Sequence record: MN895435.1
DNA: 64,000 bases
Reading direction: 5' to 3' (one strand)
DNA from: Escherichia phage teqhal
Of this stretch, positions 3,642 through 62,190 are shown piece by piece. Under the pieces are notes generated by a model. The model did no database searches. It worked only from the letters and a program-made list of their open reading frames with translations, and was not told the DNA's origin. Every line of letters begins with the position of its first letter. The stretch's first letter is position 1. Both the position numbers and the translations under genes were made by a program.

Positions 3642-3660
3642 AGGGCTTCGGCCCTTTAGC
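3641..3660 (+). terminator. UUCG-loop hairpin AAGGGCTTCGGCCCTT
   Basis: palindrome directly after a-gt stop. Confidence 0.55.
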
Positions 3661-4837: not shown

Positions 4838-5097
4838 CTTTTGATGAATTTAAAAATGTTATGATGAGTCAGCATTTTGAATGCGAAGTAAAAGATGATA
4901 TTGGTCATAAAGAAATTATTGAATATTGGTTTGAACCGCTAGAGGTTGAAGATAATTGTATTAAAAAGGTTACAGTCTGCACTGACTGGGCTGTATCTTT
5001 TAACTTCAACATTTTAGATAATGACACACCTAAATCATTACGAGATATGGCTGTATCTTGTATTAAGGATGCATACTGTGAAGTTTTCGACATTTGA
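4834..5097 (+). CDS. hypothetical protein
   Basis: 87 aa ORF overlapping gp47 stop. Confidence 0.4.
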   Translation: MTFDEFKNVMMSQHFECEVKDDIGHKEIIEYWFEPLEVEDNCIKKVTVCTDWAVSFNFNILDNDTPKSLRDMAVSCIKDAYCEVFDI

Positions 5098-5280
5098 CAT
5101 TAATGATGAATTCATAGCAAACATTGATTATACCGAAGAAGATTCTAGATATGTTGGAATAATTTATATTACATCAAAAACAGCACAAGGCGTTGTTTGC
5201 ATGGCTGAATTTGATGAATACTTTTTAGATTATGATGATATGATAGAATGGTCTAAAAGATACATTAAAAGGAATCTTTT

Positions 5281-6969
5281 GTGAAGAATTTTAAACTAAA
5301 CCGAGTTAGGTATCAAAATATAATGTCAGTAGGTGGAAATCCTATTGACATTCAATTAGATAAGGTTCAAAAAACTCTTATTACTGGACGAAATGGCGGT
5401 GGTAAGTCTACTATGTTAGAAGCCATCACATTTGGGCTTTTTGGCAAGCCATTTCGTGATGTAAAGAAAGGCCAATTAATAAACAGCACAAATAAGAAAG
5501 AACTTTTAGTTGAACTGTGGATGGAATATGATGAGAAAAAGTACTATATCAAAAGAGGACAAAAACCGAACGTTTTTGAAATCACCGTTAACGGTACACG
5601 TCTTAATGAATCTGCCAGCAGTAAAGATTTCCAAGCAGAATTTGAACAGCTTATCGGAATGTCATATGCCAGTTTCAAGCAGATTGTTGTCCTTGGTACA
5701 GCAGGGTATACCCCTTTCATGGGTTTGTCGACCCCTGCGCGAAGAAAGCTTGTGGAAGACCTGCTTGAGGTAGGAACATTAGCTGAAATGGATAAGCTTA
5801 ATAAAGCACTAATACGTGAATTAAATTCACAAAACCAAGTGCTTGACGTTAAAAAAGATAGTATTATCCAACAAATTAAAATATATAATGATAACGTTGA
5901 ACGCCAGAAAAAATTAACGGGTGACAACCTTACTCGTCTGCAAAATATGTATGATGATTTGGCAAAAGAAGCTAGAACGCTAAAATCGGAAATAGAAGAA
6001 GCTAACGAAAGATTAGTTAATATTGTTTTAGATGAAGACCCGACTGATGCATTTAATAAAATCGGTCAAGAAGCAGTTTTAATTAAATCAAAAATTGACT
6101 CGTATAATAAAGTCATTAATATGTATCACGAAGGTGGATTATGTCCAACCTGTTTGTCACAATTGAGTTCCGGTGATAAAGTTGTTTCTAAAATTAAAGA
6201 TAAAGTTTCTGAATGTACGCATTCGTTTGAACAGCTTTCAACACATCGTGATAATTTAAAAGTTCTTGTTGATGAATACCGAGATAATATTAAAACCCAA
6301 CAATCGTTGGCAAATGATATTCGCAATAAAAAGCAATCTCTAATCACGACGGTAGATAAAGCTAAAAAAGTTAAAGCGGCTATAGAAAAAGCATCTTCTG
6401 AGTTTATTGACCATGCTGATGAAATAGCACTGCTTCAAGAAGAACTTGATAAAATTGTTAAGACAAAAACTAATTTAGTAATGGAAAAATACCACCGAGG
6501 AATTTTGACTGATATGCTCAAAGATTCTGGTATTAAAGGTGCTATTATTAAAAAGTACATTCCATTATTTAATAAGCAGATTAACCATTATCTTAAAATA
6601 ATGGAAGCGGATTATGTGTTTACATTAGATGAAGAATTTAATGAGACAATTAAATCCCGTGGTCGCGAAGATTTTAGTTATGCTTCATTCAGTCAAGGTG
6701 AAAAAGCACGAATTGATATTGCTCTTTTATTTACTTGGCGTGATATTGCTGAAAAAGTTTCAGGTGTTAAAATAAGTTGTTTATTTCTTGATGAAGTGTA
6801 TGACGGTGCATTTGATGCTGAAGGTATTAAAAATGTAGCTAAAATTTTAGATGGTTTGAAGGATACCAACTTCTTCATAATTTCGCATAAAGACCATGAC
6901 CCACAAGAATATGGTCAGCATATTCAGATGGAAAAAGTTGGTAGATTTAGTTTAGCTAAGATTAGCTAG
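5281..6969 (+). CDS. 46: recombination/repair ATPase gp46 (Rad50-like)
   Basis: 562 aa, GTG start, Walker A GRNGGGKST, long coiled coil, CPTC zinc hook. Confidence 0.9.
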   Translation: MKNFKLNRVRYQNIMSVGGNPIDIQLDKVQKTLITGRNGGGKSTMLEAITFGLFGKPFRDVKKGQLINSTNKKELLVELWMEYDEKKYYIKRGQKPNVFEITVNGTRLNESASSKDFQAEFEQLIGMSYASFKQIVVLGTAGYTPFMGLSTPARRKLVEDLLEVGTLAEMDKLNKALIRELNSQNQVLDVKKDSIIQQIKIYNDNVERQKKLTGDNLTRLQNMYDDLAKEARTLKSEIEEANERLVNIVLDEDPTDAFNKIGQEAVLIKSKIDSYNKVINMYHEGGLCPTCLSQLSSGDKVVSKIKDKVSECTHSFEQLSTHRDNLKVLVDEYRDNIKTQQSLANDIRNKKQSLITTVDKAKKVKAAIEKASSEFIDHADEIALLQEELDKIVKTKTNLVMEKYHRGILTDMLKDSGIKGAIIKKYIPLFNKQINHYLKIMEADYVFTLDEEFNETIKSRGREDFSYASFSQGEKARIDIALLFTWRDIAEKVSGVKISCLFLDEVYDGAFDAEGIKNVAKILDGLKDTNFFIISHKDHDPQEYGQHIQMEKVGRFSLAKIS

Positions 6970-7678
6970 GTTTATATTTACAGTTATCATTATGCCACCT
7001 TGATAAATTTCCGAAAGTGGTAACTTTACCACAATGGACGCAAGTACCAGTCTTTTCAGTTTTCTTGCGTCCATTTGGATTTTTCTTGCAGAAATTTCTA
7101 TGTGCTGCGATAACGCATTTCTTGCCTATCATTCCGCAGAATTCGCAGGATGTTTCTTCAAGAATGATTGCTTTAAGCCCGTTTGAGATATTATTTCTGT
7201 GTTCTTTAGACATCGGTGGTCTAACTTTAGGATTAGGGTGATTCGGGCAGTTATCAAAATGCCATCGATTCATATTCCCGCTTAATCCAGACTTACCGCA
7301 ATGAGGACAAGTTAGTCTTGCTTTATTAGCTACTGCATCAGACATTTTCTTTCGTGTCTCCTGGGAGAATTCTTTATTCTTTTCTATTTCCCAGAGTTTA
7401 CGACGAATCCAACCGAAAGTTTTATTGTTGCGTTTAGCGTATTTCGTGGAAACTGTCATCATGTTAGCAGCATAGACTAATTTTGGTTCAGAAGGATAAA
7501 TTTTTACTAAAAGTTGATGAGCTACATAGTGCTCTTCTGGTGTTAAATCTACTAAGTTTGAAGCATCATCGCTGCCATTTAAACAGCGTGGTATAATGTG
7601 ATGAGATTCAGTATAGCAATCAAGTTTTCGAGATTTAGCATTAGAGATTAACTTTTCATAAATTAGTTTATAATTCAT
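6962..7678 (-). CDS. HNH homing endonuclease with three C-terminal zinc-finger repeats
   Basis: 238 aa; HNH core ESHHIIPRCLNGSDDASNLVDLTPEEHYVAHQ; three CxxCGK(x10-12)RWHxDNC-like repeats; antisense to flanking genes. Confidence 0.75.
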   Translation of the reverse strand: MNYKLIYEKLISNAKSRKLDCYTESHHIIPRCLNGSDDASNLVDLTPEEHYVAHQLLVKIYPSEPKLVYAANMMTVSTKYAKRNNKTFGWIRRKLWEIEKNKEFSQETRKKMSDAVANKARLTCPHCGKSGLSGNMNRWHFDNCPNHPNPKVRPPMSKEHRNNISNGLKAIILEETSCEFCGMIGKKCVIAAHRNFCKKNPNGRKKTEKTGTCVHCGKVTTFGNLSRWHNDNCKYKPS

Positions 7679-9064: not shown

Positions 9065-9085
9065 AAGGGCTTCGGCCCTTTATAA
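9065..9085 (+). terminator. UUCG-loop hairpin AAAGGGCTTCGGCCCTTT
   Basis: palindrome directly after gene 45 stop. Confidence 0.55.
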
Positions 9086-10639: not shown

Positions 10640-11008
10640 ATGATTGAAATTACTCTTAAAAAACCTGAAGATTTTCTGAAAGTAAAAGAAACTTTGACTC
10701 GTATGGGAATTGCTAATAATAAAGATAAAGTTCTGTATCAGTCCTGTCATATTCTTCAGAAAAAAGGACTATACTATATCGTTCATTTTAAAGAAATGCT
10801 TCGTATGGATGGTCGTCAAGTTGAAATGACAGAAGAAGATGAAGTTCGTCGTGATTCGATTGCATGGCTATTAGAAGATTGGGGACTGATTGAAATCGTT
10901 CCTGGTCAAAGAACTTTTATGAAAGATTTAACTAATAACTTCCGAGTTATTTCTTTTAAACAAAAACATGAATGGAAACTCGTTCCTAAATATACGATTG
11001 GTAATTAA
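10640..11008 (+). CDS. regA: translational repressor RegA
   Basis: 122 aa, MIEITLKKPEDFLKVKETLTRMGIANNKDKVLYQSCHIL matches remembered T4 RegA. Confidence 0.85.
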   Translation: MIEITLKKPEDFLKVKETLTRMGIANNKDKVLYQSCHILQKKGLYYIVHFKEMLRMDGRQVEMTEEDEVRRDSIAWLLEDWGLIEIVPGQRTFMKDLTNNFRVISFKQKHEWKLVPKYTIGN

Positions 11009-11009
11009 T

Positions 11010-11231
11010 ATGACTGCTATAACTCCGCAAGAATACATGGCGTCTCTTAAAGAAAAATATAATCTTTCTGCAACAGAAACACTTTTCGATTTACCAGAAA
11101 ACCTTCAACTAAAATTTCAGGTAGAATTTCAAAAATTAGTTCACCCAGAACAAAAACACTTTACCGCGGTCGTTAAGTCAATTAATGCAGATGGATTGAC
11201 AATTTTCACCCGACAAATAGTACTAATTTAA
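11010..11231 (+). CDS. hypothetical protein
   Basis: 73 aa from internal ATG of track ORF 10968..11231, starting right after regA stop. Confidence 0.4.
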   Translation: MTAITPQEYMASLKEKYNLSATETLFDLPENLQLKFQVEFQKLVHPEQKHFTAVVKSINADGLTIFTRQIVLI

Positions 11232-11234: not shown

Positions 11235-11255
11235 AGGGGCTTCGGCCCCTTAATT
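11235..11255 (+). terminator. UUCG-loop hairpin AAGGGGCTTCGGCCCCTT
   Basis: palindrome upstream of gene 43. Confidence 0.55.
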
Positions 11256-14015: not shown

Positions 14016-14040
14016 TCTAGGGACATCCGGGTCCCTTTTT
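14016..14040 (+). terminator. hairpin TAGGGACATCCGGGTCCCTTTTT
   Basis: stem-loop plus T-run after gene 43. Confidence 0.55.
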
Positions 14041-14123
14041 CATACAAGTAATATAAATCTATACTTATGAAAAACAGATGATTCTGGACCTTTAGAATTC
14101 CCTAAAAAAATTTTCACAAAACT

Positions 14124-14156
14124 GTTTACAAGACTGTTCTTCCATGGTACTATACA
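14124..14156 (+). promoter_or_regulatory. T4-type early promoter (GTTTACA ... TACTATA) with A/T-rich UP region
   Basis: GTTTACAAGACTGTTCTTCCATGGTACTATACA, conserved cassette. Confidence 0.55.
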
Positions 14157-14187
14157 ACTATCAACTAATACGGATTTGGAGAATAAA

Positions 14188-14424
14188 ATGAAAATTGTTA
14201 TGGGATGCTTAGCAGTTTGTTTAGTTGCATTAGCAGCAGTTCCATTTGTTAGTGTTGAAAATGATACTCAACCTGTGATTGAATCTAGCACCGTTATTCA
14301 CACTAATGGTAAAATATCAGTTAAAATTGATGATAATCTTCATGTGAATACAAATGGATCTTTAGGTGTGCAAATGGGTAATACCTGCGTAAGCACTACT
14401 GGAGTAATTACTACTTGCATTTGA
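14188..14424 (+). CDS. small secreted protein (signal peptide)
   Basis: 78 aa from ATG 14188 (track ORF begins at upstream TTG); hydrophobic N-terminus MKIVMGCLAVCLVALAAVPF. Confidence 0.5.
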   Translation: MKIVMGCLAVCLVALAAVPFVSVENDTQPVIESSTVIHTNGKISVKIDDNLHVNTNGSLGVQMGNTCVSTTGVITTCI

Positions 14425-18412: not shown

Positions 18413-19840
18413 GTGGTAGAAATTATTCTTTCCCATCTCATATTTGATCAAGCTTATTTTTCAAAAGTTTGGCCATATATGGATTCAGAATATTTTGAAA
18501 GTGGTCCAGCTAAAAATACATTCAAATTAATTAAATCTCATGTTAATGAGTACCATAGCGTTCCATCTATTAATGCGTTAAATGTTGCATTAGAAAATAG
18601 TTCATTTACTGAAACAGAATATTCTGGTGTAAAAACACTTATTTCGAAACTAGCCGATTCTCCAGAAGACCATAGCTGGTTAGTAAAAGAAACAGAAAAA
18701 TATGTTCAGCAAAGGGCGATGTTTAATGCTACGTCTAAAATAATTGAAATTCAAACTAATGCTGAGCTTCCTCCGGAAAAACGAAATAAGAAAATGCCAG
18801 ATGTAGGTGCTATTCCTGACATCATGCGCCAAGCATTATCAATTTCATTTGATAGTTACGTTGGTCATGATTGGATGGATGACTACGAAGCACGTTGGCT
18901 ATCTTATATGAGTAAAGCTCGTAAGGTTCCATTTAGACTCAAAATTCTAAATAAAATTACTAAAGGTGGAGCTGAAACTGGAACACTGAACGTTTTAATG
19001 GCTGGTGTTAACGTCGGTAAGTCATTAGGTCTGTGTTCATTGGCAGCAGATTATTTGCAGCTCGGACATAATGTTCTTTACATTTCCATGGAAATGGCAG
19101 AAGAAGTCTGTGCTAAGCGTATTGATGCTAATATGCTTGATGTTTCTCTTGATGACATTGATGACGGGCATATTTCTTACGCTGAGTATAAAGGAAAAAT
19201 GGAAAAATGGCGTGAGAAATCTACCCTTGGTCGTTTAATCGTTAAACAGTATCCTACTGGTGGAGCAGACGCTAACACATTCAGGTCTCTCTTGAATGAA
19301 TTGAAGCTCAAGAAGAATTTTGTTCCAACAATCATTATTGTCGACTATCTAGGTATTTGTAAATCTTGCCGCATCAGAGTTTATTCAGAAAATAGTTACA
19401 CAACTGTTAAAGCTATTGCAGAGGAATTGCGTGCTCTGGCTGTTGAAACCGAAACTGTTCTTTGGACTGCAGCACAGGTCGGTAAACAAGCTTGGGACTC
19501 TTCCGATGTTAACATGAGCGATATTGCAGAATCTGCTGGTCTTCCAGCAACAGCTGATTTTATGCTTGCGGTCATTGAAACCGAGGAGCTAGCAGCTGCT
19601 GAACAACAACTCATTAAGCAAATCAAATCACGATATGGCGATAAGAATAAGTGGAATAAGTTTTTAATGGGTGTTCAAAAGGGAAATCAGAAATGGGTAG
19701 AAATTGAACAAGATTCTACTCCAACTGAAGTGAGTGAAGTAGCAGGTTCACAACAGATACAAGCTGAGCAGAATCGCTATCAAAGAAACGAATCGACTCG
19801 AGCTCAGTTAGATGCTTTGGCAAATGAATTAAAATTTTAG
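18413..19840 (+). CDS. 41: replicative helicase gp41 (DnaB-like)
   Basis: 475 aa, GTG start, Walker A GVNVGKS, T4 gp41 length. Confidence 0.9.
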   Translation: MVEIILSHLIFDQAYFSKVWPYMDSEYFESGPAKNTFKLIKSHVNEYHSVPSINALNVALENSSFTETEYSGVKTLISKLADSPEDHSWLVKETEKYVQQRAMFNATSKIIEIQTNAELPPEKRNKKMPDVGAIPDIMRQALSISFDSYVGHDWMDDYEARWLSYMSKARKVPFRLKILNKITKGGAETGTLNVLMAGVNVGKSLGLCSLAADYLQLGHNVLYISMEMAEEVCAKRIDANMLDVSLDDIDDGHISYAEYKGKMEKWREKSTLGRLIVKQYPTGGADANTFRSLLNELKLKKNFVPTIIIVDYLGICKSCRIRVYSENSYTTVKAIAEELRALAVETETVLWTAAQVGKQAWDSSDVNMSDIAESAGLPATADFMLAVIETEELAAAEQQLIKQIKSRYGDKNKWNKFLMGVQKGNQKWVEIEQDSTPTEVSEVAGSQQIQAEQNRYQRNESTRAQLDALANELKF

Positions 19841-19843
19841 TTT

Positions 19844-19874
19844 ACAAGCTGACAAGACTATGGTATAGTAGTCT
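19844..19874 (+). promoter_or_regulatory. T4-type early promoter
   Basis: AGTTTACAAGCTGACAAGACTATGGTATAGT upstream of dmd. Confidence 0.5.
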
Positions 19875-19898
19875 TGTTGGTTAAATGAGGAGATTGTT

Positions 19899-20694: not shown

Positions 20695-21320
20695 TGCTCT
20701 ATCAAATGCACAAGTGCAAAGATACATACAAATATAAAGGTGCCCAGTGTTATATCATTAATCGTGAAAACGCGGGTCCAGGTCATTCGCATCAATCACG
20801 GTTTGTATTCGTTAAAAACAATGAAATTATAGCAGTTGCTAATTACATGCTTGTGATTAATGACGTTAATCCGGTGCCTTTTACATATTATAATCTAATG
20901 GATTTGGCGTACGATTATAATTGGTTTAATCATGACACTTTGGCTCATATCGAAGGCGTAGGATTTGACATCTCTTATTCTAGTTACTCGTTGTGTCCTA
21001 TGAGCCGAGCTCATAGAGAGCCTGAATATTTTTCATTTCGTCGGCGTGTAGACTTTAAACGCAGCACAGAGTATGTCGGTGGAATATTTGTTAAAGATAA
21101 TCGAATTACTCGCATTATTTATCCTTTGGGCTGTGGTCAAAAAGATATTGATGTTGATTTAGACTTTACTGAAAACATCATTAATCATATTGCTTCTGTG
21201 TATTTTGATATTGATCACAAAATTGTAATATGTGGATATGAATTACCGTTTGAAGAACAGCCTAAAGTAAAAGTTTCTATTGACGATCAAATTTTTAATG
21301 CTTTTATGAATAAAGGTTAA
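20694..21320 (+). CDS. hypothetical protein (61.2-like)
   Basis: 208 aa; C-terminus SIDDQIFNAFMNKG shared with next ORF. Confidence 0.5.
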   Translation: MLYQMHKCKDTYKYKGAQCYIINRENAGPGHSHQSRFVFVKNNEIIAVANYMLVINDVNPVPFTYYNLMDLAYDYNWFNHDTLAHIEGVGFDISYSSYSLCPMSRAHREPEYFSFRRRVDFKRSTEYVGGIFVKDNRITRIIYPLGCGQKDIDVDLDFTENIINHIASVYFDIDHKIVICGYELPFEEQPKVKVSIDDQIFNAFMNKG

Positions 21321-21321
21321 T

Positions 21322-21678
21322 ATGTATAGTTCTGAATTTTCATATTTAAAAATGGAAAAAATTTCATACGATTTTATAGATGAAAAGGTTTATTACAGTT
21401 TCCATGAACCGCGTTTTAATAGTGAGGTTGGGTTTATTGTAGTAAAAGACAATTTCATTTTAAAGATATATTCGGCATTAAAGGATTTTCACTACGAAAA
21501 TATTAACCTAAAATTTGATAAAGAAAACGTTCGTAATTGTGCAGTAACAATTACAGGAAATAAAGGTACATGTGTTATGCTATCTGATGAAATTAATGAT
21601 TTGCTAAATGATGCAGAAAATATTACTGCGCCATCTATTGATGACCAAATTTTTAATGCTTTTATGAATAGAGGTTAA
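21322..21678 (+). CDS. hypothetical protein (61.1-like)
   Basis: 118 aa; C-terminus SIDDQIFNAFMNRG shared with previous ORF. Confidence 0.5.
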   Translation: MYSSEFSYLKMEKISYDFIDEKVYYSFHEPRFNSEVGFIVVKDNFILKIYSALKDFHYENINLKFDKENVRNCAVTITGNKGTCVMLSDEINDLLNDAENITAPSIDDQIFNAFMNRG

Positions 21679-21679
21679 T

Positions 21680-21844
21680 ATGAAAACATATAAAGAATTT
21701 ATTAAAGAAGATATGGTCGCTGGAGATTCAGGTGGTAATCCTGAAAATATCTCTACTGGAACAACGTCAGGTGCTGTAGTAAATAAAGGTCCTGAACAGA
21801 TTCCTAAAAAGAAGAAAGAGGAATCTAAAGAAAAAGAAGAGTAA
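21680..21844 (+). CDS. small Lys/Glu-rich protein (54 aa)
   Basis: ATG with GAGG RBS, ends 2 nt before gene 61; not in ORF track. Confidence 0.3.
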   Translation: MKTYKEFIKEDMVAGDSGGNPENISTGTTSGAVVNKGPEQIPKKKKEESKEKEE

Positions 21845-23082: not shown

Positions 23083-23110
23083 TATTGCTTTATATATTTA
23101 TTGTATAATT
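23083..23110 (+). promoter_or_regulatory. MotA-dependent middle promoter upstream of gene 56
   Basis: MotA box ATTGCTTTA about 11 nt upstream of TATAAT. Confidence 0.5.
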
Positions 23111-23145
23111 AATCTACTAACCCATGAATTGAAAGGAAAAAAATA

Positions 23146-23664
23146 ATGGCTTACTTTAATGAATGTGCTCATTTGATCGAAGGTGTTGATAAAGCAAATC
23201 GTGCATATGCTGAGAATATTATGCACAATATTGACCCACTGCAGGTTATGCTTGATATGCAGCGGCATTTACAGATTCGTTTGGCTAATGATAAACCAGA
23301 AACAAATCGTCATCCTGATTCACTTGAAACCGCAGGAGAAGTTCTTGCTTGGTTGCGAAACCAAGACGATTATATCGCAGATGAAACTCGCGAACTATAT
23401 ACTTCTCTTGGTGGTATGAGTAATGGTGAAAAAGAAGCTTCTGCTGTATGGAAACCTTGGAAGAAACGTTATTCTGAAATGCAATCCAAGAAAATTCAAG
23501 ATTTATCTCCCGAAGATCAGCTTGAAATTAAATTTGAACTGATTGACCAATTTCACTTTTTCATGAATAAATTTATTGCTCTTGGAATGTCAGCTGAAGA
23601 AATCTTTAAACTTTATTACCTGAAAAATGCTGAAAACTTCGCTCGTCAAGACCGAGGTTATTAA
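23146..23664 (+). CDS. 56: dCTP pyrophosphatase gp56
   Basis: 172 aa, MAYFNECAHLIEGVDKA ... KLYYLKNAENFARQDRGY matches remembered T4 gp56. Confidence 0.85.
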   Translation: MAYFNECAHLIEGVDKANRAYAENIMHNIDPLQVMLDMQRHLQIRLANDKPETNRHPDSLETAGEVLAWLRNQDDYIADETRELYTSLGGMSNGEKEASAVWKPWKKRYSEMQSKKIQDLSPEDQLEIKFELIDQFHFFMNKFIALGMSAEEIFKLYYLKNAENFARQDRGY

Positions 23665-23864
23665 TGGCTCGTTTAAATAAGCGTCAGCTTAAGAAAGCCC
23701 ATAAGAAACGTATTGACCAGCTATTTAAAGATTATAACAAGGAGCTCACATATGAGCTCTTATCTAATCAGCTTCGTATGGTTGATTGGGTTATAGAAGA
23801 AGGTCCTGACGAAATTTTTGTCAGTGAAGAAGCCTTAAAATTAATTATAGAGCATTCAAAATGA
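23664..23864 (+). CDS. hypothetical basic protein
   Basis: 66 aa ORF with ATGA overlap. Confidence 0.45.
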   Translation: MARLNKRQLKKAHKKRIDQLFKDYNKELTYELLSNQLRMVDWVIEEGPDEIFVSEEALKLIIEHSK

Positions 23865-24034
23865 AAATATCCAAAGAAGAATTTATTAGACGACAAAAAG
23901 CTTTAATTAATTTACATGAGTGGTATGCTTATCAACTTAAAGTAGATAGCTCTAATATAAATGCTGTAATGGCTTTATATAAACAAATTCAAGATGAACA
24001 TGAATTCCTGGCACAAGTTTTCATTGAAGATTGA
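23861..24034 (+). CDS. hypothetical protein (57 aa)
   Basis: ATGA overlap with previous ORF; not in ORF track. Confidence 0.3.
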   Translation: MKISKEEFIRRQKALINLHEWYAYQLKVDSSNINAVMALYKQIQDEHEFLAQVFIED

Positions 24035-24042
24035 TATAAATA
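24035..24042 (+). promoter_or_regulatory. late promoter TATAAATA upstream of soc
   Basis: exact TATAAATA about 30 nt upstream of soc ATG. Confidence 0.6.
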
Positions 24043-28917: not shown

Positions 28918-30233
28918 CATTTGATGATTTGACCGAAGGCCAGAAAAATGCCTTTAACATTGTTATGAAGGCTATTAAAGAAAAGAAACATCATGTAACT
29001 ATTAATGGACCTGCTGGTACTGGTAAGACTACTCTTACCAAATTCATCATTGAAGCTTTAATATCTACGGGTGAAACTGGTATTATTTTAGCAGCTCCTA
29101 CTCATGCAGCTAAAAAGATTCTTTCAAAACTATCAGGGAAAGAAGCGAGTACTATTCACAGCATTCTTAAAATTAACCCAGTAACATATGAAGAAAACGT
29201 TCTTTTTGAACAAAAAGAAGTACCAGATTTAGCTAAATGCAGGGTATTAATCTGCGACGAAGTGTCAATGTATGATAGAAAGCTCTTCAAAATTTTGCTT
29301 TCAACTATTCCACCTTGGTGTACTATAATTGGAATAGGTGATAATAAGCAAATTAGACCTGTTGATCCAGGAGAAAATACTGCTTATATCAGTCCATTCT
29401 TTACACACAAAGATTTTTATCAGTGTGAACTTACTGAAGTTAAACGCAGTAATGCTCCTATTATTGATGTAGCTACTGATGTTCGCAACGGTAAGTGGAT
29501 TTATGATAAAGTTGTTGACGGTCATGGAGTACGTGGATTTACTGGTGATACCGCTTTACGCGATTTTATGGTAAATTATTTTTCAATCGTCAAATCACTA
29601 GATGATTTGTTTGAAAATCGCGTAATGGCATTTACGAATAAATCCGTTGACAAGTTAAATAGCATTATTCGTAAAAAGATTTTTGAAACTGATAAAGATT
29701 TTATTGTTGGTGAAATTATTGTAATGCAGGAACCATTAATTAAAACATATAAAATTGATGGAAAGCCTGTATCAGAAATTATTTTTAATAATGGACAATT
29801 AGTTCGTATTATAGAAGCAGAGTATACATCGACGTTTGTTAAAGCTCGTGGTGTTCCTGGAGAATACTTAATTCGTCATTGGGATTTAACAGTAGAAACT
29901 TACGGCGATGATGAATATTATCGTGAAAAGATTAAAATAATTTCATCTGATGAAGAGCTATATAAGTTTAACCTATTTTTAGGTAAAACGGCAGAAACTT
30001 ATAAAAATTGGAACAAAGGCGGAAAAGCTCCGTGGAGTGATTTTTGGGATGCTAAATCACAGTTTAGTAAAGTGAAAGCACTTCCTGCATCAACATTCCA
30101 TAAAGCGCAGGGTATGTCTGTAGACCGTGCTTTCATTTATACGCCTTGTATTCATTATGCAGATGCTGAATTAGCTCAGCAGCTTCTTTATGTTGGTGTC
30201 ACTCGTGGTCGTTATGATGTGTTTTATGTGTGA
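28914..30233 (+). CDS. dda: DNA helicase Dda (SF1B)
   Basis: 439 aa, Walker A GPAGTGKTT, T4 Dda length. Confidence 0.9.
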   Translation: MTFDDLTEGQKNAFNIVMKAIKEKKHHVTINGPAGTGKTTLTKFIIEALISTGETGIILAAPTHAAKKILSKLSGKEASTIHSILKINPVTYEENVLFEQKEVPDLAKCRVLICDEVSMYDRKLFKILLSTIPPWCTIIGIGDNKQIRPVDPGENTAYISPFFTHKDFYQCELTEVKRSNAPIIDVATDVRNGKWIYDKVVDGHGVRGFTGDTALRDFMVNYFSIVKSLDDLFENRVMAFTNKSVDKLNSIIRKKIFETDKDFIVGEIIVMQEPLIKTYKIDGKPVSEIIFNNGQLVRIIEAEYTSTFVKARGVPGEYLIRHWDLTVETYGDDEYYREKIKIISSDEELYKFNLFLGKTAETYKNWNKGGKAPWSDFWDAKSQFSKVKALPASTFHKAQGMSVDRAFIYTPCIHYADAELAQQLLYVGVTRGRYDVFYV

Positions 30234-30239
30234 GGATAT

Positions 30240-30500
30240 ATGATTAACATCAATTCAAAATATTTAAATCGTCTAATAGATGGTATAAGGAAGCATACTA
30301 ATAAGCAAGATAATCTTAATGTTATGGTAACAGGAGCTGAGCTCCTTCATAAGCTTTATCTTATAAGTGATACTATATTAGCAATTAAACGAATTGAAAA
30401 ACAATCATATCACAGTAATACAGATACGGTAATTACACTAGATGAAAGTGTCTGTAAATTACTAATTAAATTTGAGGAAGCTATTCGTGGAAATAACTAA
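30240..30500 (+). CDS. hypothetical protein (dexA.2-like)
   Basis: 86 aa ORF. Confidence 0.45.
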   Translation: MININSKYLNRLIDGIRKHTNKQDNLNVMVTGAELLHKLYLISDTILAIKRIEKQSYHSNTDTVITLDESVCKLLIKFEEAIRGNN

Positions 30501-32235: not shown

Positions 32236-32736
32236 ATGATTAAAATTAATACTACGTATCAAATGAAAAAACCATCTGAAATTGATTTCCAGACAATGTC
32301 GAATACGACTGATAGCAAGTTTTGGGAACTTCTTGGTACAACTGGCGGATATCCTTTTACTGTTATTAGTGTTAATAGCGGAATTCTCATTGGTACAGTG
32401 TACATGGAAATTAGAAACTATTATGGAAGGGTATCATCATTCATCATCTATGAAGAAGATTTCAATTTATTGACAGAAATTGAAAAAGAAGAACAAGAAA
32501 AATCCCATATTGATATGGATTTAGTTTCTATGTATGTAACACCAGTTGAAAAAATTGAAGACCCGACTGATTTGTTGTGTAAGGCAGTTTATATTCGTCG
32601 TCCATTCGCGAATCCGATTGGCGGTTGGGTAACTGATCAGTGGATTGAAGATGGTGTTGAACTTCTGAACGTAGTTCATGCTGGAGAGTACTCTGTAGTT
32701 CCTCGCAGCGCAGTGATTAATGTTCGTGTAAGCTAG
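32236..32736 (+). CDS. hypothetical protein, paralogue pair member 1
   Basis: 166 aa; C-terminal WVTDQWIEDGVELLNVVHAGEYSVVP resembles next ORF. Confidence 0.5.
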   Translation: MIKINTTYQMKKPSEIDFQTMSNTTDSKFWELLGTTGGYPFTVISVNSGILIGTVYMEIRNYYGRVSSFIIYEEDFNLLTEIEKEEQEKSHIDMDLVSMYVTPVEKIEDPTDLLCKAVYIRRPFANPIGGWVTDQWIEDGVELLNVVHAGEYSVVPRSAVINVRVS

Positions 32737-32765
32737 TTTACAAACTCTTGGGACCAGAGTATAAT
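32736..32765 (+). promoter_or_regulatory. T4-type early promoter
   Basis: AGTTTACAAACTCTTGGGACCAGAGTATAATGG. Confidence 0.5.
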
Positions 32766-32809
32766 GGTCCTGCGGAGTATAAAATCTTTTTAACAAGTGA
32801 GAGATAATT

Positions 32810-33301: not shown

Positions 33302-33334
33302 AGTTTAAAATTTTTTCATAAAACTATATACATC

Positions 33335-33360
33335 AGTAGTTGATTATGGTACTATATCAA
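33335..33360 (+). promoter_or_regulatory. T4-type early promoter with conserved leader
   Basis: A/T-rich UP region, TTGATTATGGTACTATATC, then conserved CAACTACTGATAC leader. Confidence 0.4.
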
Positions 33361-33398
33361 TATCAACTACTGATACAGAAAACAACTTGGAGAATAAA

Positions 33399-33668
33399 AT
33401 GGAAAACTTAATTATCATCGAGCAATCTTTCAACGATTATGGTATGGCTTATGGTTATCGTGCGATAATGGAAGATTCTCGTGGATGTGTTATCGATATT
33501 GCTGAATGTAAAGATTTACTGCAGCTTTTGAAGATTGTTCGCAAAAATTGGGATTGTGAAAACATTAAAGCTCGTGTTGTAACGGAAGAAGAAACTGTTT
33601 TTCATGATGTAAAATTTGCCAAAGATGCTGCTACTCTTCTGAAACGCATCGCTCCACTGTTCAATTAA
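33399..33668 (+). CDS. hypothetical protein
   Basis: 89 aa from ATG 33399 (track ORF begins at upstream TTG). Confidence 0.45.
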   Translation: MENLIIIEQSFNDYGMAYGYRAIMEDSRGCVIDIAECKDLLQLLKIVRKNWDCENIKARVVTEEETVFHDVKFAKDAATLLKRIAPLFN

Positions 33669-34497: not shown

Positions 34498-34869
34498 ATG
34501 TTTAAAATCGGTAAGAAATATTGCATTCGTGAAGGTGAAGAACAGAAATATCTACTTTCTGCTAGTAATAGGAATAGTTCTATTAATGCTGTAATATCTA
34601 CAAGCGAATTTATCGTTGAAGATATGAAAGGTAATAATGTCACAATGATTAGTACAGCATCTGGAAATGATGGAAAAATTCTTCACAGTTTTCAGAGTAA
34701 TGTTCTAATTTATGATGAAGAATTTGACCTATTCGAAGAAGTTACAGAAGATTTTGATTTTGAATGCACTATCACTATGAAATCTGGCGATCCTCTTTCT
34801 TTTACAGTTAAAGATGAAAGAAGCCGCTTGAGAGTTATTAGTCTTCTTCAAGCCATTAAATTTAAGTGA
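34498..34869 (+). CDS. hypothetical protein
   Basis: 123 aa ORF. Confidence 0.45.
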   Translation: MFKIGKKYCIREGEEQKYLLSASNRNSSINAVISTSEFIVEDMKGNNVTMISTASGNDGKILHSFQSNVLIYDEEFDLFEEVTEDFDFECTITMKSGDPLSFTVKDERSRLRVISLLQAIKFK

Positions 34870-35135
34870 AAATTATGAAATATATTAATCGTTCTATCGC
34901 AGCATTAGTATTAGCAGTGTCTTTAGTAGGATGTACTGATGCTGATAATGCAACTAAAGTTTTGTCTTCAAGTGGTTTTACTAATATTGAAATCACTGGA
35001 TATAACTGGTTCGGTTGCTCTGAAAATGATTTCCAACATACTGGATTTCGTGCTATTGGACCTACCGGGCAGAAAGTAGAAGGAACAGTATGTTCTGGGC
35101 TGTTCTTTAAGGATTCAACTATTCGTTTTAAATAA
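34866..35135 (+). CDS. putative lipoprotein
   Basis: 89 aa, signal peptide and lipobox LVGC. Confidence 0.5.
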   Translation: MKIMKYINRSIAALVLAVSLVGCTDADNATKVLSSSGFTNIEITGYNWFGCSENDFQHTGFRAIGPTGQKVEGTVCSGLFFKDSTIRFK

Positions 35136-35158
35136 AAGGCCTTCGGGCCTTTAGCTTT
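35136..35158 (+). terminator. UUCG-loop hairpin AAAGGCCTTCGGGCCTTT
   Basis: palindrome immediately after lipoprotein gene. Confidence 0.55.
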
Positions 35159-35204
35159 ATGATTACCGGAGTATAATATTCCCGAAACCAAACGAGGATA
35201 AGTG

Positions 35205-37022
35205 ATGATTAAGAATGAAATTAAAATTCTGAGCGATATTGAACATATCAAAAAGCGTAGTGGCATGTACATTGGCTCTTCTGCTAATGAAATGCATGAG
35301 CGCTTTCTGTTTGGTAAATGGGAAAGTGTTCAGTATGTACCTGGTCTTGTTAAGCTTATTGATGAAATTATCGATAACTCAGTCGATGAAGGTATTCGTA
35401 CTAAGTTTAAATTCGCGAATAAAATTAATGTTACCATTAAAAATAATCAGGTAACAGTTGAAGATAACGGTCGCGGTATTCCACAAGCGATGGTTAAAAC
35501 ACCTACCGGTGAAGAAATTCCTGGTCCAGTTGCTGCTTGGACTATTCCAAAAGCGGGTGGTAACTTCGGTGATGATAAAGAACGCGTCACTGGCGGTATG
35601 AATGGTGTTGGTTCTAGTTTAACTAACATTTTTTCTGTGATGTTTGTCGGAGAAACTGGCGACGGTCAAAATAATATTGTAGTTCGTTGTTCAAACGGCA
35701 TGGAAAATAAATCATGGGAAGATATTCCTGGAAAATGGAAAGGAACCCGTGTTACTTTCATTCCTGATTTTATGTCATTTGAAACTAATGAGCTGTCCCA
35801 AGTTTATCTTGACATTACACTAGATCGTCTCCAGACACTTGCTGTTGTTTATCCTGATATTCAATTTACCTTTAATGGTAAAAAGGTTCAGGGCAATTTT
35901 AAGAAATATGCACGCCAATATGATGAGCATGCTATTGTTCAAGAACAAGAAAATTGTTCTATTGCGGTTGGTCGTTCACCGGATGGTTTTCGTCAATTAA
36001 CTTATGTGAATAACATCCACACTAAGAATGGTGGCCATCACATTGACTGTGTTATGGATGATATTTGTGAAGACCTTATTCCACAAATCAAACGTAAGTT
36101 CAAAATTGATGTAACTAAAGCACGTGTCAAAGAATGTTTGACTATCGTTATGTTTGTTCGTGATATGAAAAACATGCGATTTGATTCTCAAACTAAAGAG
36201 CGTTTGACTTCTCCATTTGGCGAAATTCGTAGTCATATTCAGCTTGATGCTAAAAAGATTTCACGCGCTATTTTAAACAATGAAGCGATTTTGATGCCAA
36301 TTATTGAAGCTGCGTTGGCTCGTAAATTGGCGGCAGAAAAAGCAGCAGAAACTAAAGCAGCTAAAAAGGCTTCTAAAGCTAAGGTTCATAAACATATCAA
36401 AGCGAATCTTTGTGGTAAAGATGCTGATACTACTCTTTTCTTGACTGAGGGTGATTCGGCTATCGGATATCTTATTGATGTTCGTGATAAAGAACTTCAT
36501 GGTGGTTATCCATTGCGTGGTAAAGTTCTCAACAGTTGGGGTATGTCATATGCTGATATGCTTAAAAACAAAGAACTGTTTGATATTTGCGCAATCACTG
36601 GATTAGTTCTCGGTGAAAAAGCTGAAAACTTGAATTATCATAATATTGCTATTATGACTGATGCTGACCATGATGGTCTAGGAAGCATTTATCCTTCTCT
36701 GCTCGGGTTTTTTAGTAATTGGCCAGAATTGTTTGAGCAAGGACGAATTCGCTTTGTCAAAACTCCTGTAATCATCGCTCAGGTCGGTAAAAAACAAGAA
36801 TGGTTTTATACAGTCGCTGAATATGAGAGTGCTAAAGATGCTCTACCTAAACATAGCATCCGTTATATTAAGGGACTTGGCTCTTTGGAAAAATCTGAAT
36901 ATCGTGAGATGATTCAAAATCCGGTATATGATGTTGTTAAACTTCCTGAGAACTGGAAAGAGCTTTTTGAAATGCTCATGGGAGATAATGCTGACCTTCG
37001 TAAAGAATGGATGAGCCAGTAG
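35205..37022 (+). CDS. 39: topoisomerase II large (ATPase, GyrB-like) subunit gp39, unsplit
   Basis: 605 aa single ORF from ATG 35205; T4 has 39 (516 aa) plus 60 (160 aa) with a translational bypass. Confidence 0.9.
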   Translation: MIKNEIKILSDIEHIKKRSGMYIGSSANEMHERFLFGKWESVQYVPGLVKLIDEIIDNSVDEGIRTKFKFANKINVTIKNNQVTVEDNGRGIPQAMVKTPTGEEIPGPVAAWTIPKAGGNFGDDKERVTGGMNGVGSSLTNIFSVMFVGETGDGQNNIVVRCSNGMENKSWEDIPGKWKGTRVTFIPDFMSFETNELSQVYLDITLDRLQTLAVVYPDIQFTFNGKKVQGNFKKYARQYDEHAIVQEQENCSIAVGRSPDGFRQLTYVNNIHTKNGGHHIDCVMDDICEDLIPQIKRKFKIDVTKARVKECLTIVMFVRDMKNMRFDSQTKERLTSPFGEIRSHIQLDAKKISRAILNNEAILMPIIEAALARKLAAEKAAETKAAKKASKAKVHKHIKANLCGKDADTTLFLTEGDSAIGYLIDVRDKELHGGYPLRGKVLNSWGMSYADMLKNKELFDICAITGLVLGEKAENLNYHNIAIMTDADHDGLGSIYPSLLGFFSNWPELFEQGRIRFVKTPVIIAQVGKKQEWFYTVAEYESAKDALPKHSIRYIKGLGSLEKSEYREMIQNPVYDVVKLPENWKELFEMLMGDNADLRKEWMSQ

Positions 37023-40418: not shown

Positions 40419-40436
40419 GGGCTTCGGCCCTTAACT
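40416..40436 (+). terminator. UUCG-loop hairpin TAAGGGCTTCGGCCCTTA
   Basis: palindrome overlapping rIIB stop. Confidence 0.5.
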
Positions 40437-40643: not shown

Positions 40644-40666
40644 AAGGGCTTCGGCCCTTTTGTTTT
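40644..40666 (+). terminator. UUCG-loop hairpin AAGGGCTTCGGCCCTTTTGTTTT
   Basis: palindrome plus T-rich tail. Confidence 0.6.
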
Positions 40667-40723: not shown

Positions 40724-41281
40724 ATGCAGAAAACGAATCCGGGTTTACAGAGACTATTTCAGATTCCGACATTTACCCTATCGAACAGTGACTTGACTAG
40801 TGAAATGAAGGTCAAAATTGCTGATACAGCAAGATACTCTTTAAAACAAAATCCAAATCAGGATAAGGCAGAAGTTATCGAAAGATGCCGTATCGCTGTG
40901 TACGCAGAGTTTTTTGTGGCAGATTGGCTAAGCGGATATGTCAATAAAGGCCAAGAAGATGTCGATGATCCGTACACATATGCATGGGATGTTTTAGCAC
41001 ATCCAAAATACTGTGGGCTCCGTGTAGAAGTTAAGACACATCAAACTGACTCGCGTTGGATTTCGGTAACAACGGGATGCAGCGGAGAGTATCCATATGG
41101 TTCTGGAATAAATCTAGGGCCCATTCTAAATCATCAAGTCGCGGACTGTATAATTATATTCAACACTAAAGAAATTCATCCAGGTGTCATCCAGTACACT
41201 CCGAAGTTCATTGGTGATAGAGAAGACCTTCGTAAGGTTGTAAGAAAAAGCAACTACAACGGCTGGTATCTTTCCATTTAA
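40724..41281 (+). CDS. denB: endonuclease IV DenB
   Basis: 185 aa, T4 denB length and position next to rIIB. Confidence 0.8.
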   Translation: MQKTNPGLQRLFQIPTFTLSNSDLTSEMKVKIADTARYSLKQNPNQDKAEVIERCRIAVYAEFFVADWLSGYVNKGQEDVDDPYTYAWDVLAHPKYCGLRVEVKTHQTDSRWISVTTGCSGEYPYGSGINLGPILNHQVADCIIIFNTKEIHPGVIQYTPKFIGDREDLRKVVRKSNYNGWYLSI

Positions 41282-41297
41282 AAATTTTCACAAAACG

Positions 41298-41330
41298 GTT
41301 TACATACCACAAGGACCGTGGTATTATACA
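41298..41330 (+). promoter_or_regulatory. T4-type early promoter with conserved leader
   Basis: GTTTACATACCACAAGGACCGTGGTATTATAC then CAACTATCAACTACTGATAC. Confidence 0.55.
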
Positions 41331-41364
41331 ACTATCAACTACTGATACGGATTTGGAGAATAAA

Positions 41365-41628
41365 ATGAAATTTAAATTTTATTACGCTAAACATAAAATA
41401 ACTGATGAGTTTGTGTCAGTTGAATATTCTAGCGATGATGAAGGTATGATTTATACTCGCTTGGGACTATCGCATTGGGAGTCTGATACGCCTTATTTTT
41501 CAACTCCCGAAGAAATTACACGCTTAGTTAATGGTCATATGAATGACCACTGGAATGTAATTCTTTCAGATAGTCTTAAAGCAGCTATTAATAGTAATGA
41601 AATGAAAATCGCTGAGATTGAGCTATGA
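41365..41628 (+). CDS. hypothetical protein
   Basis: 87 aa from ATG 41365 (track ORF begins at upstream TTG). Confidence 0.45.
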   Translation: MKFKFYYAKHKITDEFVSVEYSSDDEGMIYTRLGLSHWESDTPYFSTPEEITRLVNGHMNDHWNVILSDSLKAAINSNEMKIAEIEL

Positions 41629-41814
41629 GTTCACTATGGTGGTGTTTTGTTTGGTTAATTAGTATTCCAGTAATTTGTTTAACATTTACTTTTGTAATGA
41701 GGTTATTATGAAAATTTTGAATTCTGTACTTATTGCTTGTGCGTGGTGGGTTGCACAGGTTTCAGCGGTAGTAGTTGGTATTCACATTTATTACGAATAT
41801 TTTTAAAAAAGTTG

Positions 41815-41846
41815 TTTACAGGACTGTTCTTCCGTGGTACTATTAC
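41815..41846 (+). promoter_or_regulatory. T4-type early promoter
   Basis: GTTTACAGGACTGTTCTTCCGTGGTACTATTA. Confidence 0.5.
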
Positions 41847-41871
41847 CCTATCAACTACGGAGGAACAGAAA

Positions 41872-41985
41872 ATGAAAAAGATTGTTAAAGCTATATGGAA
41901 TGTAGTTATAATACTAATAGTTTTGAGTATATTCCCAATCGTTTTAATGATTGATATGTTAAACGCTTATTTTGGATTTATGTGA
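41872..41985 (+). CDS. small membrane peptide (37 aa)
   Basis: MKKIVKAIWNVVIILIVLSIF after GGAGG RBS; within track ORF 41737..41985. Confidence 0.3.
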   Translation: MKKIVKAIWNVVIILIVLSIFPIVLMIDMLNAYFGFM

Positions 41986-44902: not shown

Positions 44903-44929
44903 AGGGAGAGCCGAGGCTCTCCCTTTTTT
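44903..44929 (+). terminator. hairpin AGGGAGAGCCGAGGCTCTCCCTTTTTT
   Basis: perfect palindrome plus T-run. Confidence 0.65.
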
Positions 44930-44954
44930 ATTTCAAAAATTTTTTCATAAAACG

Positions 44955-44986
44955 GTTTACAACCAAAGCATACTGTGGTACTATAC
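44955..44986 (+). promoter_or_regulatory. T4-type early promoter with UP region and conserved leader
   Basis: GTTTACAACCAAAGCATACTGTGGTACTATAC upstream of motA. Confidence 0.55.
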
Positions 44987-45025
44987 AACTATCAACTACT
45001 GATACAGAATTACGGAGATTAGAAA

Positions 45026-45661
45026 ATGTCTAAAGTAACTTACATCATCAAAGCTTCTAACGATGTTCTGAATGAAAAAACTGCTGCGATTTTAATTACT
45101 ATTGCTAAGAAAGATTTCATTACAGCTGCAGAAGTTCGTGAGGTGCATCCAGATTTAGGTAACGCAGTAGTTAATAGTAATATTGGGGTATTGATTAAAA
45201 AAGGCCTGGTGGAGAAATCTGGTGATGGATTAATCATTACTGGTGAAGCTCAGGATATTATTTCAAATGCAGCAACTTTATATGCACAGGAAAATGCTCC
45301 GGAACTACTGAAAAAACGAGCAACTCGTAAAGCTCGCGAGATTACTTCCGATATGGAAGAAGATAAAGACCTCATGTTAAAACTTTTAGATGAAAATGGA
45401 TTTGTTCTTAAAAAGGTTGAAACTTATCGTAGTAATTATCTTGCCATTTTAGAAAAACGCACTCACGGAATTCGTAATTTTGAAATTAACAACAATGGAA
45501 ACATGCGAATTTTTGGATACAAAATGATGGAACATCATATTCAGAAATTTACTGACATCGGAATGTCATGTAAAATCGCTAAAAACGGTAATGTGTATCT
45601 TGACATTAAACGCTCGGTAGAAAACATTGAAGCAGTAATCACTGTAGCATCTGAACTGTGA
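45026..45661 (+). CDS. motA: middle-transcription activator MotA
   Basis: 211 aa, same length as T4 MotA, preceded by an early promoter. Confidence 0.9.
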   Translation: MSKVTYIIKASNDVLNEKTAAILITIAKKDFITAAEVREVHPDLGNAVVNSNIGVLIKKGLVEKSGDGLIITGEAQDIISNAATLYAQENAPELLKKRATRKAREITSDMEEDKDLMLKLLDENGFVLKKVETYRSNYLAILEKRTHGIRNFEINNNGNMRIFGYKMMEHHIQKFTDIGMSCKIAKNGNVYLDIKRSVENIEAVITVASEL

Positions 45662-47319: not shown

Positions 47320-47468
47320 GTCATAATCTTGAAAAAGTAATCGAGCATAATGTAGCTCAGGAACGTAAGTCGTTCAAGGAATTCGTAGAAAAAATTTTTG
47401 AAGAAAATAACACAGACCAGTTTACAAATCAAGCGTCTGATGATATTATAACAAAGTCAACTAATTGA
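47316..47468 (+). CDS. hypothetical protein (50 aa)
   Basis: ATGA overlap with arn; contains the asiA promoter; absent from ORF track. Confidence 0.25.
   Translation: MSHNLEKVIEHNVAQERKSFKEFVEKIFEENNTDQFTNQASDDIITKSTN
47420..47451 (+). promoter_or_regulatory. T4-type early promoter for asiA
   Basis: GTTTACAAATCAAGCGTCTGATGATATTATAA. Confidence 0.5.
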
Positions 47469-47480
47469 GTGGTATAGTTA

Positions 47481-47753
47481 ATGAATAAAAACATTGATAC
47501 AGTTCGTGAAATTATTACTGTTGCGTCTATTTTGATTAAATTTTCCAGAGAAGATATTGTTGAGAATCGTGCTAATTTTATTGCATTTCTGAATGAGATT
47601 GGAGTAACGCATGAAGGTAGAAAATTAAATCAGAATTCATTCCGTAAAATTGTTTCTGAATTAACTCAAGAAGATAAGAAAACCCTCATCGACGAATTCA
47701 ACGAGGGTTTTGAGGGTGTATATCGATATCTAGAGATGTATACGAACAAATAA
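47481..47753 (+). CDS. asiA: anti-sigma-70 factor AsiA
   Basis: 90 aa, MNKNIDTVREIITVASILIKFSREDIVENRANFIAFLNEIG matches remembered T4 AsiA. Confidence 0.9.
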   Translation: MNKNIDTVREIITVASILIKFSREDIVENRANFIAFLNEIGVTHEGRKLNQNSFRKIVSELTQEDKKTLIDEFNEGFEGVYRYLEMYTNK

Positions 47754-49239: not shown

Positions 49240-49257
49240 AGAGGGCCGAAGCCCTCT
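49240..49257. other. palindromic hairpin AGAGGGCCGAAGCCCTCT between genes 37 and 38
   Basis: perfect inverted repeat in the 30 nt intergenic gap. Confidence 0.5.
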
Positions 49258-62067: not shown

Positions 62068-62093
62068 GGGGACCTCTAGGGTCCCTTTTTTTA
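62068..62093 (+). terminator. hairpin GGGGACCTCTAGGGTCCCTTTTTTT
   Basis: stem-loop plus T-run after gene 32. Confidence 0.65.
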
Positions 62094-62117
62094 TTTCAAA
62101 AATTTTTTCACAAAATG

Positions 62118-62150
62118 GTTTACATCCTTGTCCTTCCATGGTACTATACA
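62118..62150 (+). promoter_or_regulatory. T4-type early promoter with UP region
   Basis: GTTTACATCCTTGTCCTTCCATGGTACTATACA. Confidence 0.55.
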
Positions 62151-62190
62151 ACTATCGGCAATACTGCTGATGATTAAAGAGGAAAATAAT

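Follow-up and report, generated by a model that had tools for sequence, protein, structure and literature searches.

The window, a 64,000-nt stretch of Escherichia phage teqhal (MN895435.1), is T2/T6-like Tequatrovirus DNA. Alignment of the whole window with T4 by BLAST shows that the two are colinear, with the window reversed relative to the T4 map. The + strand carries gene 55, 46/47, 45, 44, 62, regA, 43, imm, and 42, then uvsX, 41, 61, dda, motB, 39, and rIIA, and then rIIB, denB, ndd, 52, motA, and asiA. The late genes t, 38, 37, 36, 35, and 34 follow asiA on the - strand, and the rnh, 59, 32, frd region comes after them. As this gene order matches that of T4, the + strand is the early/middle transcription strand. 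The 3-kb stretch around the first of the promoter cassettes described below was matched along most of its length by 496 phage records, the majority of them with 95–99% identity. Nearly all of these records are T4-like coliphages of the genus Tequatrovirus, and the closest match is phage FL08 (99.5%). Gene content differs from that of T4 at several places. A 238-aa minus-strand ORF without a Pfam hit (6962–7678) lies between genes 46 and 45.2, gene 39 (35202–37022) is one uninterrupted ORF of 606 aa and lacks the gene 60 split, and dam, segA, segF, segG, mobA, and mobB are absent from the window; other differences are found at 23083–24035. Relative to T4, a 61.1-like gene is duplicated in tandem, as marked by a 49-nt direct repeat with 94% identity and a distance of 358 bp (21276–21324 and 21634–21682). 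The proximal tail-fibre gene 34 on the - strand has four 68-nt direct repeats of 63–74% identity at 56394–57370, which probably reflect repeated protein motifs.

The sequence-only reading had placed a repeated module at six sites of the window, and all six carry it. The module is composed of an A/T-rich UP region, GTTTAC(A), a 17-bp spacer ending in TGG, the -10 element TAYTAT, and a conserved start-site region, and it ends with a leader of about 30 nt without structure and the start region GGAGAATAAAATG. The first cassette, with its early promoter (14106–14190, + strand), lies between gene 43 and a 78-aa ORF. Its UP region occupies 14106–14123, GTTTAC 14124–14129, TGG 14145–14147, and the -10 element TACTAT 14148–14153; the inferred start is at about 14160, and GGAGAATAAAA (14178–14188) leads into the ATG at 14188–14190. 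A terminator-like hairpin, AGGGACATCCGGGTCCCT, with a T run (14019–14036, + strand) follows gene 43 about 70 bp upstream of the cassette, and its sequence is not GGGCTTCGGCCC. The 78-aa ORF (14188–14424, + strand, phrog_4189) has a hydrophobic N-terminus. Most of it is contained in 321 phage records, and it is not in T4, where the same cassette joins imm.1 directly through the repeat ATGAAAAT.

The second cassette (33308–33401, + strand) is located after motB and has a degenerate -35 element, ATATACA at 33326. TGG and TACTAT (33350–33355) are followed by a long leader variant, GATACAGAAAACAACTTGGAG, by GGAGAATAAAA at 33389–33399, and by the ATG at 33399–33401; an inverted repeat (33332–33351/33355–33374) brackets the -10 element. 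The 89-aa ORF behind it (33399–33668, + strand, phrog_3720) matched 493 records, 260 of them over more than 80% of the query, and in T4 only an out-of-frame remnant is left behind the same cassette (motB/cef). The third cassette (41280–41367, + strand) lies directly past the denB stop codon, with GTTTAC at 41298, the -10 element TATTAT at 41322–41327, GGAGAATAAAA at 41355–41365, and the ATG at 41365–41367. It leads into an 87-aa ORF (ORF87; 41365–41628, + strand, phrog_2390), most of which is contained in 535 phage records. A homolog of ORF87 occupies the corresponding locus of RB69, and ORF87 is deleted in T4 and RB32 between AAT(A/G)AAATGAAA repeats.

The other three sites lead into an ndd.4-like gene, motA, and a frd.3-like gene. 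An early promoter upstream of an ndd.4-like gene (41796–41874, + strand) has GTTTAC at 41814, the -10 element at 41838–41843, the Shine-Dalgarno (SD) sequence GGAGG, and the ATG at 41872–41874. The motA locus (44903–45028, + strand) comprises a terminator hairpin (44903–44924), a UP region from 44930, GTTTAC at 44955, the -10 element at 44979–44984, the leader ACAACTATCAACTACTGATACAGAATTACGGAG, and the motA ATG at 45026–45028. At 62068–62193 (+ strand), a terminator hairpin after gene 32 (62068–62086) is followed by the early promoter of a frd.3-like gene, with GTTTAC at 62118, the -10 element at 62142–62147, and the ATG at 62191–62193. We also found a copy that the earlier reading had missed (63092–63167, + strand), which has GTTTAC at 63110, the -10 element at 63134–63139, CTTATCAACTA, GGAGAATAAAA at 63155–63165, and the ATG of a frd.1-like gene at 63165–63167. 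The asiA early promoter (47402–47483, + strand; GTTTAC at 47420, TATTAT, GTCAACTA) is a weaker member of the family.

A repeat search of the window grouped the six sites into one 62-nt family with 71–81% identity to the reference. Its members are at 14106–14167, 33308–33369, 41280–41341, 41796–41857, 44937–44998, and 62100–62161, and the search gave weaker members at 47402 and 63092. TTGGAGAATAAAATG occurs exactly at 14176–14190, 33387–33401, and 41353–41367, with 0.6 occurrences expected by chance at no more than two mismatches. Exact copies of the 21-mer ACAACTATCAACTACTGATAC stand at 41328 and 44985, and one with three mismatches at 33356, with none expected. We then compared the sub-elements of the six copies with those of the other 11 promoters by mean pairwise identity, which was 0.66 versus 0.39 for the UP region, 1.00 versus 0.52 for TGn, and 0.66 versus 0.34 for the 20 nt past the -10 element. 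The copies are hence alike well beyond the generic -35 and -10 hexamers, as the earlier reading had held. The identical runs common to the window's copies are 9–26 nt long, and the 17-nt spacers of the six are mostly unrelated (mean identity 0.36).

Several details are to be corrected. Of the GTTTACA ascribed to the copies, GTTTAC is exact in five of six, and the copy at 33303 has ATATACA instead. The leader had been described as identical in three copies; the start region TTGGAGAATAAAATG is indeed exact in all three, but the leader of the 14100 copy, CAACTATCAACTAATACGGA, lacks 3 nt and that of the 33303 copy is about 9 nt longer. The -10 element of the 41282 copy is TATTAT rather than TACTAT. 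The feature is real and highly non-random, and the earlier reading is right in outline and wrong in some details.

The core GTTTAC-N18-TAnnnT has 17 exact matches in the window, all on the + strand and none on the other, against 0.84 expected. T4, of which 160 kb were scanned, has 38 such cores on the early strand and none on the other. A generic sigma-70 scan of the window gave no excess (62 matches versus 68.7 expected), so only the T4-specific pattern is informative. TGG precedes the -10 element in all six copies, and the A/T content upstream is 0.76–0.88 in the five copies with exact GTTTAC (the one at 33326 left out). T4 aligns with the window across each cassette, and each copy has a T4 counterpart. 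Specifically, the counterparts are at 27080, upstream of imm.1, for the 14106 cassette, at about 6600, at 167086 for the 41280 cassette, and at 166807, 163673, 146875, and 161211 for the ndd.4-like, motA, frd.3-like, and asiA promoters, respectively. This orthology was assigned by sequence alignment; the promoters of the RefSeq T4 record are unannotated save for a note naming Pe133295. From gene 43 to imm.1, the 14100 copy is base-for-base identical in T4 through promoter and leader, and the other copies agree with T4 in like manner. The T4 early promoters (Pe class; Miller et al. 2003, Wilkens & Rueger 1996) have been described in Hinton's 2010 review as "uber" UP/-35/TGn/-10 promoters with further conserved positions (PMC2988021), and Nolan et al. 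placed GTTTAC at -36 to -31 and an A-rich stretch at -40 to -44 (PMC1524935). The cassettes resemble this Pe class in the UP region, GTTTAC, 17-bp spacer, TGn, TAnnnT, and start-site region, and in their confinement to the early-gene strand. They differ from T4 in that the window phage is T2/T6-like, several copies drive a small ORF missing in T4, and copy 62118 has a spacer other than that of its T4 counterpart; nothing essential differs. Separately, an exact GTTTAC-N18-TACAAT at 58289–58318 lies antisense within gene 34 without an A/T-rich upstream region and is kept in T4 at 151291; either chance or an antisense early promoter could account for it.

With a probability of roughly 85%, we read the modules as immediate-early promoters of a T4-like phage, each fused to a leader and a translation start, which would act as portable junctions for small early genes. 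The mechanism, including the start sites and RegB cutting, is drawn from the T4 literature. The host sigma-70 RNA polymerase would bind an unusually complete promoter made up of the UP region, GTTTAC(A), a 17-bp spacer ending in TGn, and TAYTAT, and transcription would start about 7 nt past the -10 element, inside the conserved CTATCAAC. As the start lies there, the first six bases of what the sequence-only reading called the leader are part of the promoter, which leaves a true leader of about 30 nt. This leader would be unstructured and end in GGAGAATAAAATG, a putative SD sequence that is also an exact match to the strong RegB/S1 consensus. Given this double match, translation of the mRNAs should begin immediately and their inactivation follow after a few minutes. 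Most sub-elements of the copies would sit at a functional optimum, which may account for much of their likeness; the copies would also exchange sequence, as patches of spacer and leader common to distant loci suggest. Small early genes could be inserted, deleted, or replaced beside such junctions with expression kept, since the copies have identical stretches in common (57 nt in one T4 pair) and stop right at the start codon. The A-rich 3' edge of the cassette, AATAAAATGAAA, would be one short direct repeat among many.

We then inspected the start region. The strong RegB/S1 cleavage consensus has 11 nt, GG*AGRAYARAA (PMC3014915), and the GGAGAATAAAA of the cassettes fits it exactly, which the sequence-only reading had not recognized. 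GGAGRAYARAA has four exact matches in the window (14178, 33389, 41355, and 63155) versus 0.32 expected, and all four are on the + strand, overlap the ATG by one base, and lie within a cassette. The shared start would thereby combine the commonest T4 SD sequence with an optimal site for the nuclease by which early mRNAs are shut off. Identical initiation regions were said to serve unrelated genes, and this is borne out: the genes behind exact GGAGAATAAAATG belong to three PHROG families that are mutually unrelated and of unknown function. The strong RegB/S1 sites of T4 early mRNAs (Durand et al. 2006, reviewed in PMC3014915) likewise place an exact GGAGRAYARAA at the SD position in unstructured RNA; the cassette sites are putative members of this class. 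The regB gene itself is outside the window (T4 62279–62740).

Exact identity over 20–26 nt of transcribed non-coding sequence might be taken as the mark of a structured cis-regulatory RNA, either a riboswitch or a protein-binding hairpin. This is highly improbable. Folding of the six leaders gave minimum free energies of 0 to -8.4 kcal/mol with z-scores of -1.25 to +1.44 versus shuffled sequences, so no structure beyond the shuffled controls was found in them, and an Rfam scan of the whole window returned no match. In the folding models, the GGA is predicted to be unpaired in the leader RNA, as RegB requires. Moreover, in RB69, which belongs to a different genus, CTATCAA is conserved at the start site, and the ACTACTGATACGGATT that follows it in the window is missing from the promoters. 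This pattern makes the start-site motif look functional and the rest of the leader look like shared ancestry within the sub-family. A further idea, which we regard as doubtful, is that the leader part from about +8 to +25, ACUACUGAUACGGAUU, together with the perfect RegB/S1 site, might form one RNA-level unit that gives a subset of immediate-early genes a shared programme of translation and then decay, with the A-rich 3' edge AAUAAAAUGAAA as a preferred microhomology for start-to-start excision and insertion. If that were true, the extended identity would be selected for and not merely carried by recombination.

Functional constraint offers another account, in which the copies are held independently at the optimum for polymerase, ribosome, and RegB/S1 and play no special part in recombination. 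All sub-elements save part of the leader do match a known functional consensus, most spacers are as unrelated as the mean identity given above says, and in RB69, Jiaodavirus, and Gelderlandvirus phages GTTTAC, the CTATCAA of the start site, and GGAGAATAAAATG are retained while the remainder of the leader is missing. We nevertheless hold functional constraint alone to be unlikely, as non-consensus sequence is also shared between distant loci. Between 14124 and 41814, spacer identity reaches 86%, whereas the 99th percentile of a shuffled null is 71%. The spacer of the promoter after gene 32 at 62118, ATCCTTGTCCTTCCATGG, is almost the same as that of T4 70696 and unlike that of its T4 counterpart at 146875, AAGCATAAAGCTTTATGG; this T4 promoter in turn has 57 nt identical to T4 55384, 91 kb away. 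Constraint does not explain why so long an exact run within T4 should meet a different spacer in the window. Leader variants common to several loci, such as the long GATACAGAAAAYAACTTGGAG found at the motB locus and at T4 70696, tell against it as well, and so do homology breakpoints within the cassettes at denB, motA, and frd.1. Such mosaics of spacer and leader indicate exchange between copies.

Gene gain and loss was then followed along the alignment with T4. Homology breaks at 14201, 33406, 41370, and 63151. The first three positions are 3–11 bp past the ATG of the three identical-leader copies, and at all three loci T4 retains the cassette without the first ORF; the fourth lies within the start region of the 63092 copy, where T4 homology resumes. 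Gene content beside the copies varies among related phages, with the three ORFs present in some relatives and missing in others. The indel between gene 43 and imm.1 is bounded by ATGAAAAT, and the one at denB by AAT(A/G)AAATGAAA, with an 8-codon remnant left in T4. As RB69 has a homolog of ORF87 at the same place, it is T4 that has lost this ORF. Four more small ORFs of the window, at 611–872, 11008–11228, 30233–30465, and 34500–34873, are missing in T4. Repeats at start/stop junctions (AATTATG, ATGATTAA, and TAATTAA) are visible at three of these four indels, AATTATG being located at 39.2/39.1 and ATGATTAA at dda/dexA.2. Many whole-gene indels use only such 7–12-bp direct repeats at start/stop junctions, and microhomology between one start and the next seems to be a general way in which these genomes gain and lose single genes. 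With repeats of 7–12 bp at their ends, the three indels beside identical-leader copies need no whole-cassette homology. Three of the seven small-ORF indels fall at cassette-led genes, a small sample chosen after the fact and given no p-value.

These repeats bring up the possibility that the cassettes are bystanders: slippage or short-homology recombination between short direct repeats at any start/stop junction would drive gain and loss, and selection would keep expression. Seven of seven small whole-gene indels relative to T4 are listed with end repeats, a tally that includes the one at 611–872, where no short repeat was identified; moreover, ORF87 was lost at slightly different points in RB32 and T4. 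As a full account this has some plausibility but is not the one we favour. It leaves unexplained the swaps of spacer and leader between distant promoters, an insert between two promoters of phage CM8 that share a 23-nt leader segment, and the published mini-circles between cassettes of this kind (PMC2839356).

The reading of the modules as portable junctions was compared with the denB and motA loci of seven phages besides T4; the set thus has eight genomes and one variable region, and its breakpoint counts are small. At denB, one promoter with its leader up to the ATG has three different continuations. In RB68, as in the window, ORF87 comes next; slur02, RB32, and SYGD1 have a 69-aa ORF at this point, and T4 has an ORF remnant. 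In slur02 and SYGD1, the 69-aa ORF is placed between the denB cassette and ORF87. Shinka and CM8 keep the promoter and ORF87 at denB with a different leader and SD sequence. Upstream of motA, CM8 has the terminator hairpin, the motA promoter, a new leader, a 75-aa ORF without a Pfam hit (ORF75; region 5000–5480 of the compared locus), a second promoter, which is of RB69 type, and finally motA. The 23-nt segment CTATCAAATAAATGAACTGAAAC is common to both of its leaders. In two further genera, ORF75 homologs are enclosed by a pair of early promoters and occupy other loci: in the Jiaodavirus phage Metamorpho after a tRNA cluster (1340–1810 of the compared locus), and in the Gelderlandvirus ABTNLPp2 between nrdC-like genes (1310–1775 of the compared locus). 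The ORF is hence known from three genera, each with its own genomic position, and its presence in 133 Tequatrovirus records at no less than 99% identity suggests recent spread. The joins of cassette and ATG, the insertion of a cassette-ORF-cassette unit, and the swapped spacers and leaders in relatives support the earlier proposal that the repeats are substrates for recombination. Two exact-pattern scans of IMG/VR for the leader gave 0 and 5 loci, too few to tabulate contexts.

Cassette-ORF-cassette units at different loci in different genera might recall integron cassettes, with the copies as ends of a mobile element that a dedicated site-specific recombinase moves, and Arbiol et al. raised a helper protein as a possibility (PMC2839356). 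The junctions, however, occur at varied points of the cassette (ATG, leader, and spacer), no terminal inverted repeats or target duplications were found around the copies, no recombinase gene is associated with the cassettes, and T4 general recombination suffices. We give this explanation very little credence.

The cassettes of the window correspond closely to a known system, the PeSL (promoter-early stem-loop) of Arbiol et al. (2010; PMC2839356) and Comeau et al. (2014; PMC4122927), in which an early promoter with an A/T-rich region and a stem-loop runs at its 3' end into an SD sequence and a start codon. According to these two papers, PeSLs are concentrated in variable early regions beside indels, and circular recombination products (mini-circles) between neighbouring PeSLs were shown. 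The T4/PST consensus is TTTACW-N17-TAYWAT, and exchange was illustrated in the ndd.4/ndd.5 region (PMC4122927). With that exchange and the PeSL model in print, the interpretation of the sequence-only reading is the published one. The window's copies share with PeSLs the A/T-rich region, early promoter, SD sequence, and start codon, and the position in variable early regions beside indels between close relatives; the consensus fits, and the exchange reported for T4/PST is at denB–ndd (PMC4122927). They differ from PeSLs in two respects. First, stem-loops are found at four of the six copies, three of them upstream (14019–14036, 44903–44924, and 62068–62086) and one overlapping the -10 element (33332–33374), and the two copies at 41282 and 41800 have no detectable one. 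Second, at the three identical-leader copies the indels are deletions through start-codon microhomology and not PeSL-to-PeSL crossovers. According to the PeSL authors, patches of homology below 50 bp are enough for recombination in T4 (PMC2839356). The runs common to the window's copies are short (9–26 nt) and may recombine inefficiently; exchange from one cassette to another is therefore probably rare, in keeping with the low frequencies that these authors report. The promoter-associated repeats on either side of the T-even internal-protein loci, as summarized in the PeSL papers (Repoila et al. 1994; PMC2839356, PMC4122927), are likewise based on T4 early promoters, have weak A/T-rich stem-loops, and bound shuffled small genes; they are at another locus, and the ipI–III genes are not in the window.

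Inverted repeats bracket or overlap the -10 element at 19840–19885 (as ACAAGACT / AGTCTTGT), 32736–32775, 33332–33374, and 63115–63145. In T4, a complementary run of at least 6 bp surrounds the -10 element in eight of 38 promoters versus 1.3 expected. We considered these repeats as a new feature and dropped the idea; they are already described as a subclass of PeSL stem-loops in RB49 and phi1. Another set of hairpins, of the GGGCTTCGGCCC type with a C(UUCG)G loop, occurs nine times at gene ends (0.44 expected), among others at 4–15, 3643–3654, 9067–9078, 11237–11248, 35138–35149, 40419–40430, 40646–40657, and 49243–49254 (- strand). The copies had been described as often just after such a hairpin, yet none of the nine adjoins a listed copy; the hairpins directly upstream of three copies, those given above, have other sequences. 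The hairpin at 40646 adjoins the site of a 330-bp ORF that is in CM8, slur02, Shinka, RB32, and SYGD1 and not in the window, T4, or RB68. The GGGC/GCCC deletion end points of Mosig, in the form in which Arbiol et al. cite them (PMC2839356), may be related to the GGGCTTCGGCCC hairpins.

The finding is real but ordinary, in that the T4 early promoter family and the PeSL idea are already known and are found again in another T-even genome. Two minor points are added, namely that the start region is the RegB/S1 consensus and that many single-gene indels rest on start-codon microhomology. For annotation, a cassette dates the small ORF downstream as an immediate-early gene, predicts a RegB-sensitive start region, and marks likely differences in gene content between related therapeutic or environmental phages. 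The refinement is that start-codon microhomology, besides whole-cassette homology, underlies many single-gene indels.
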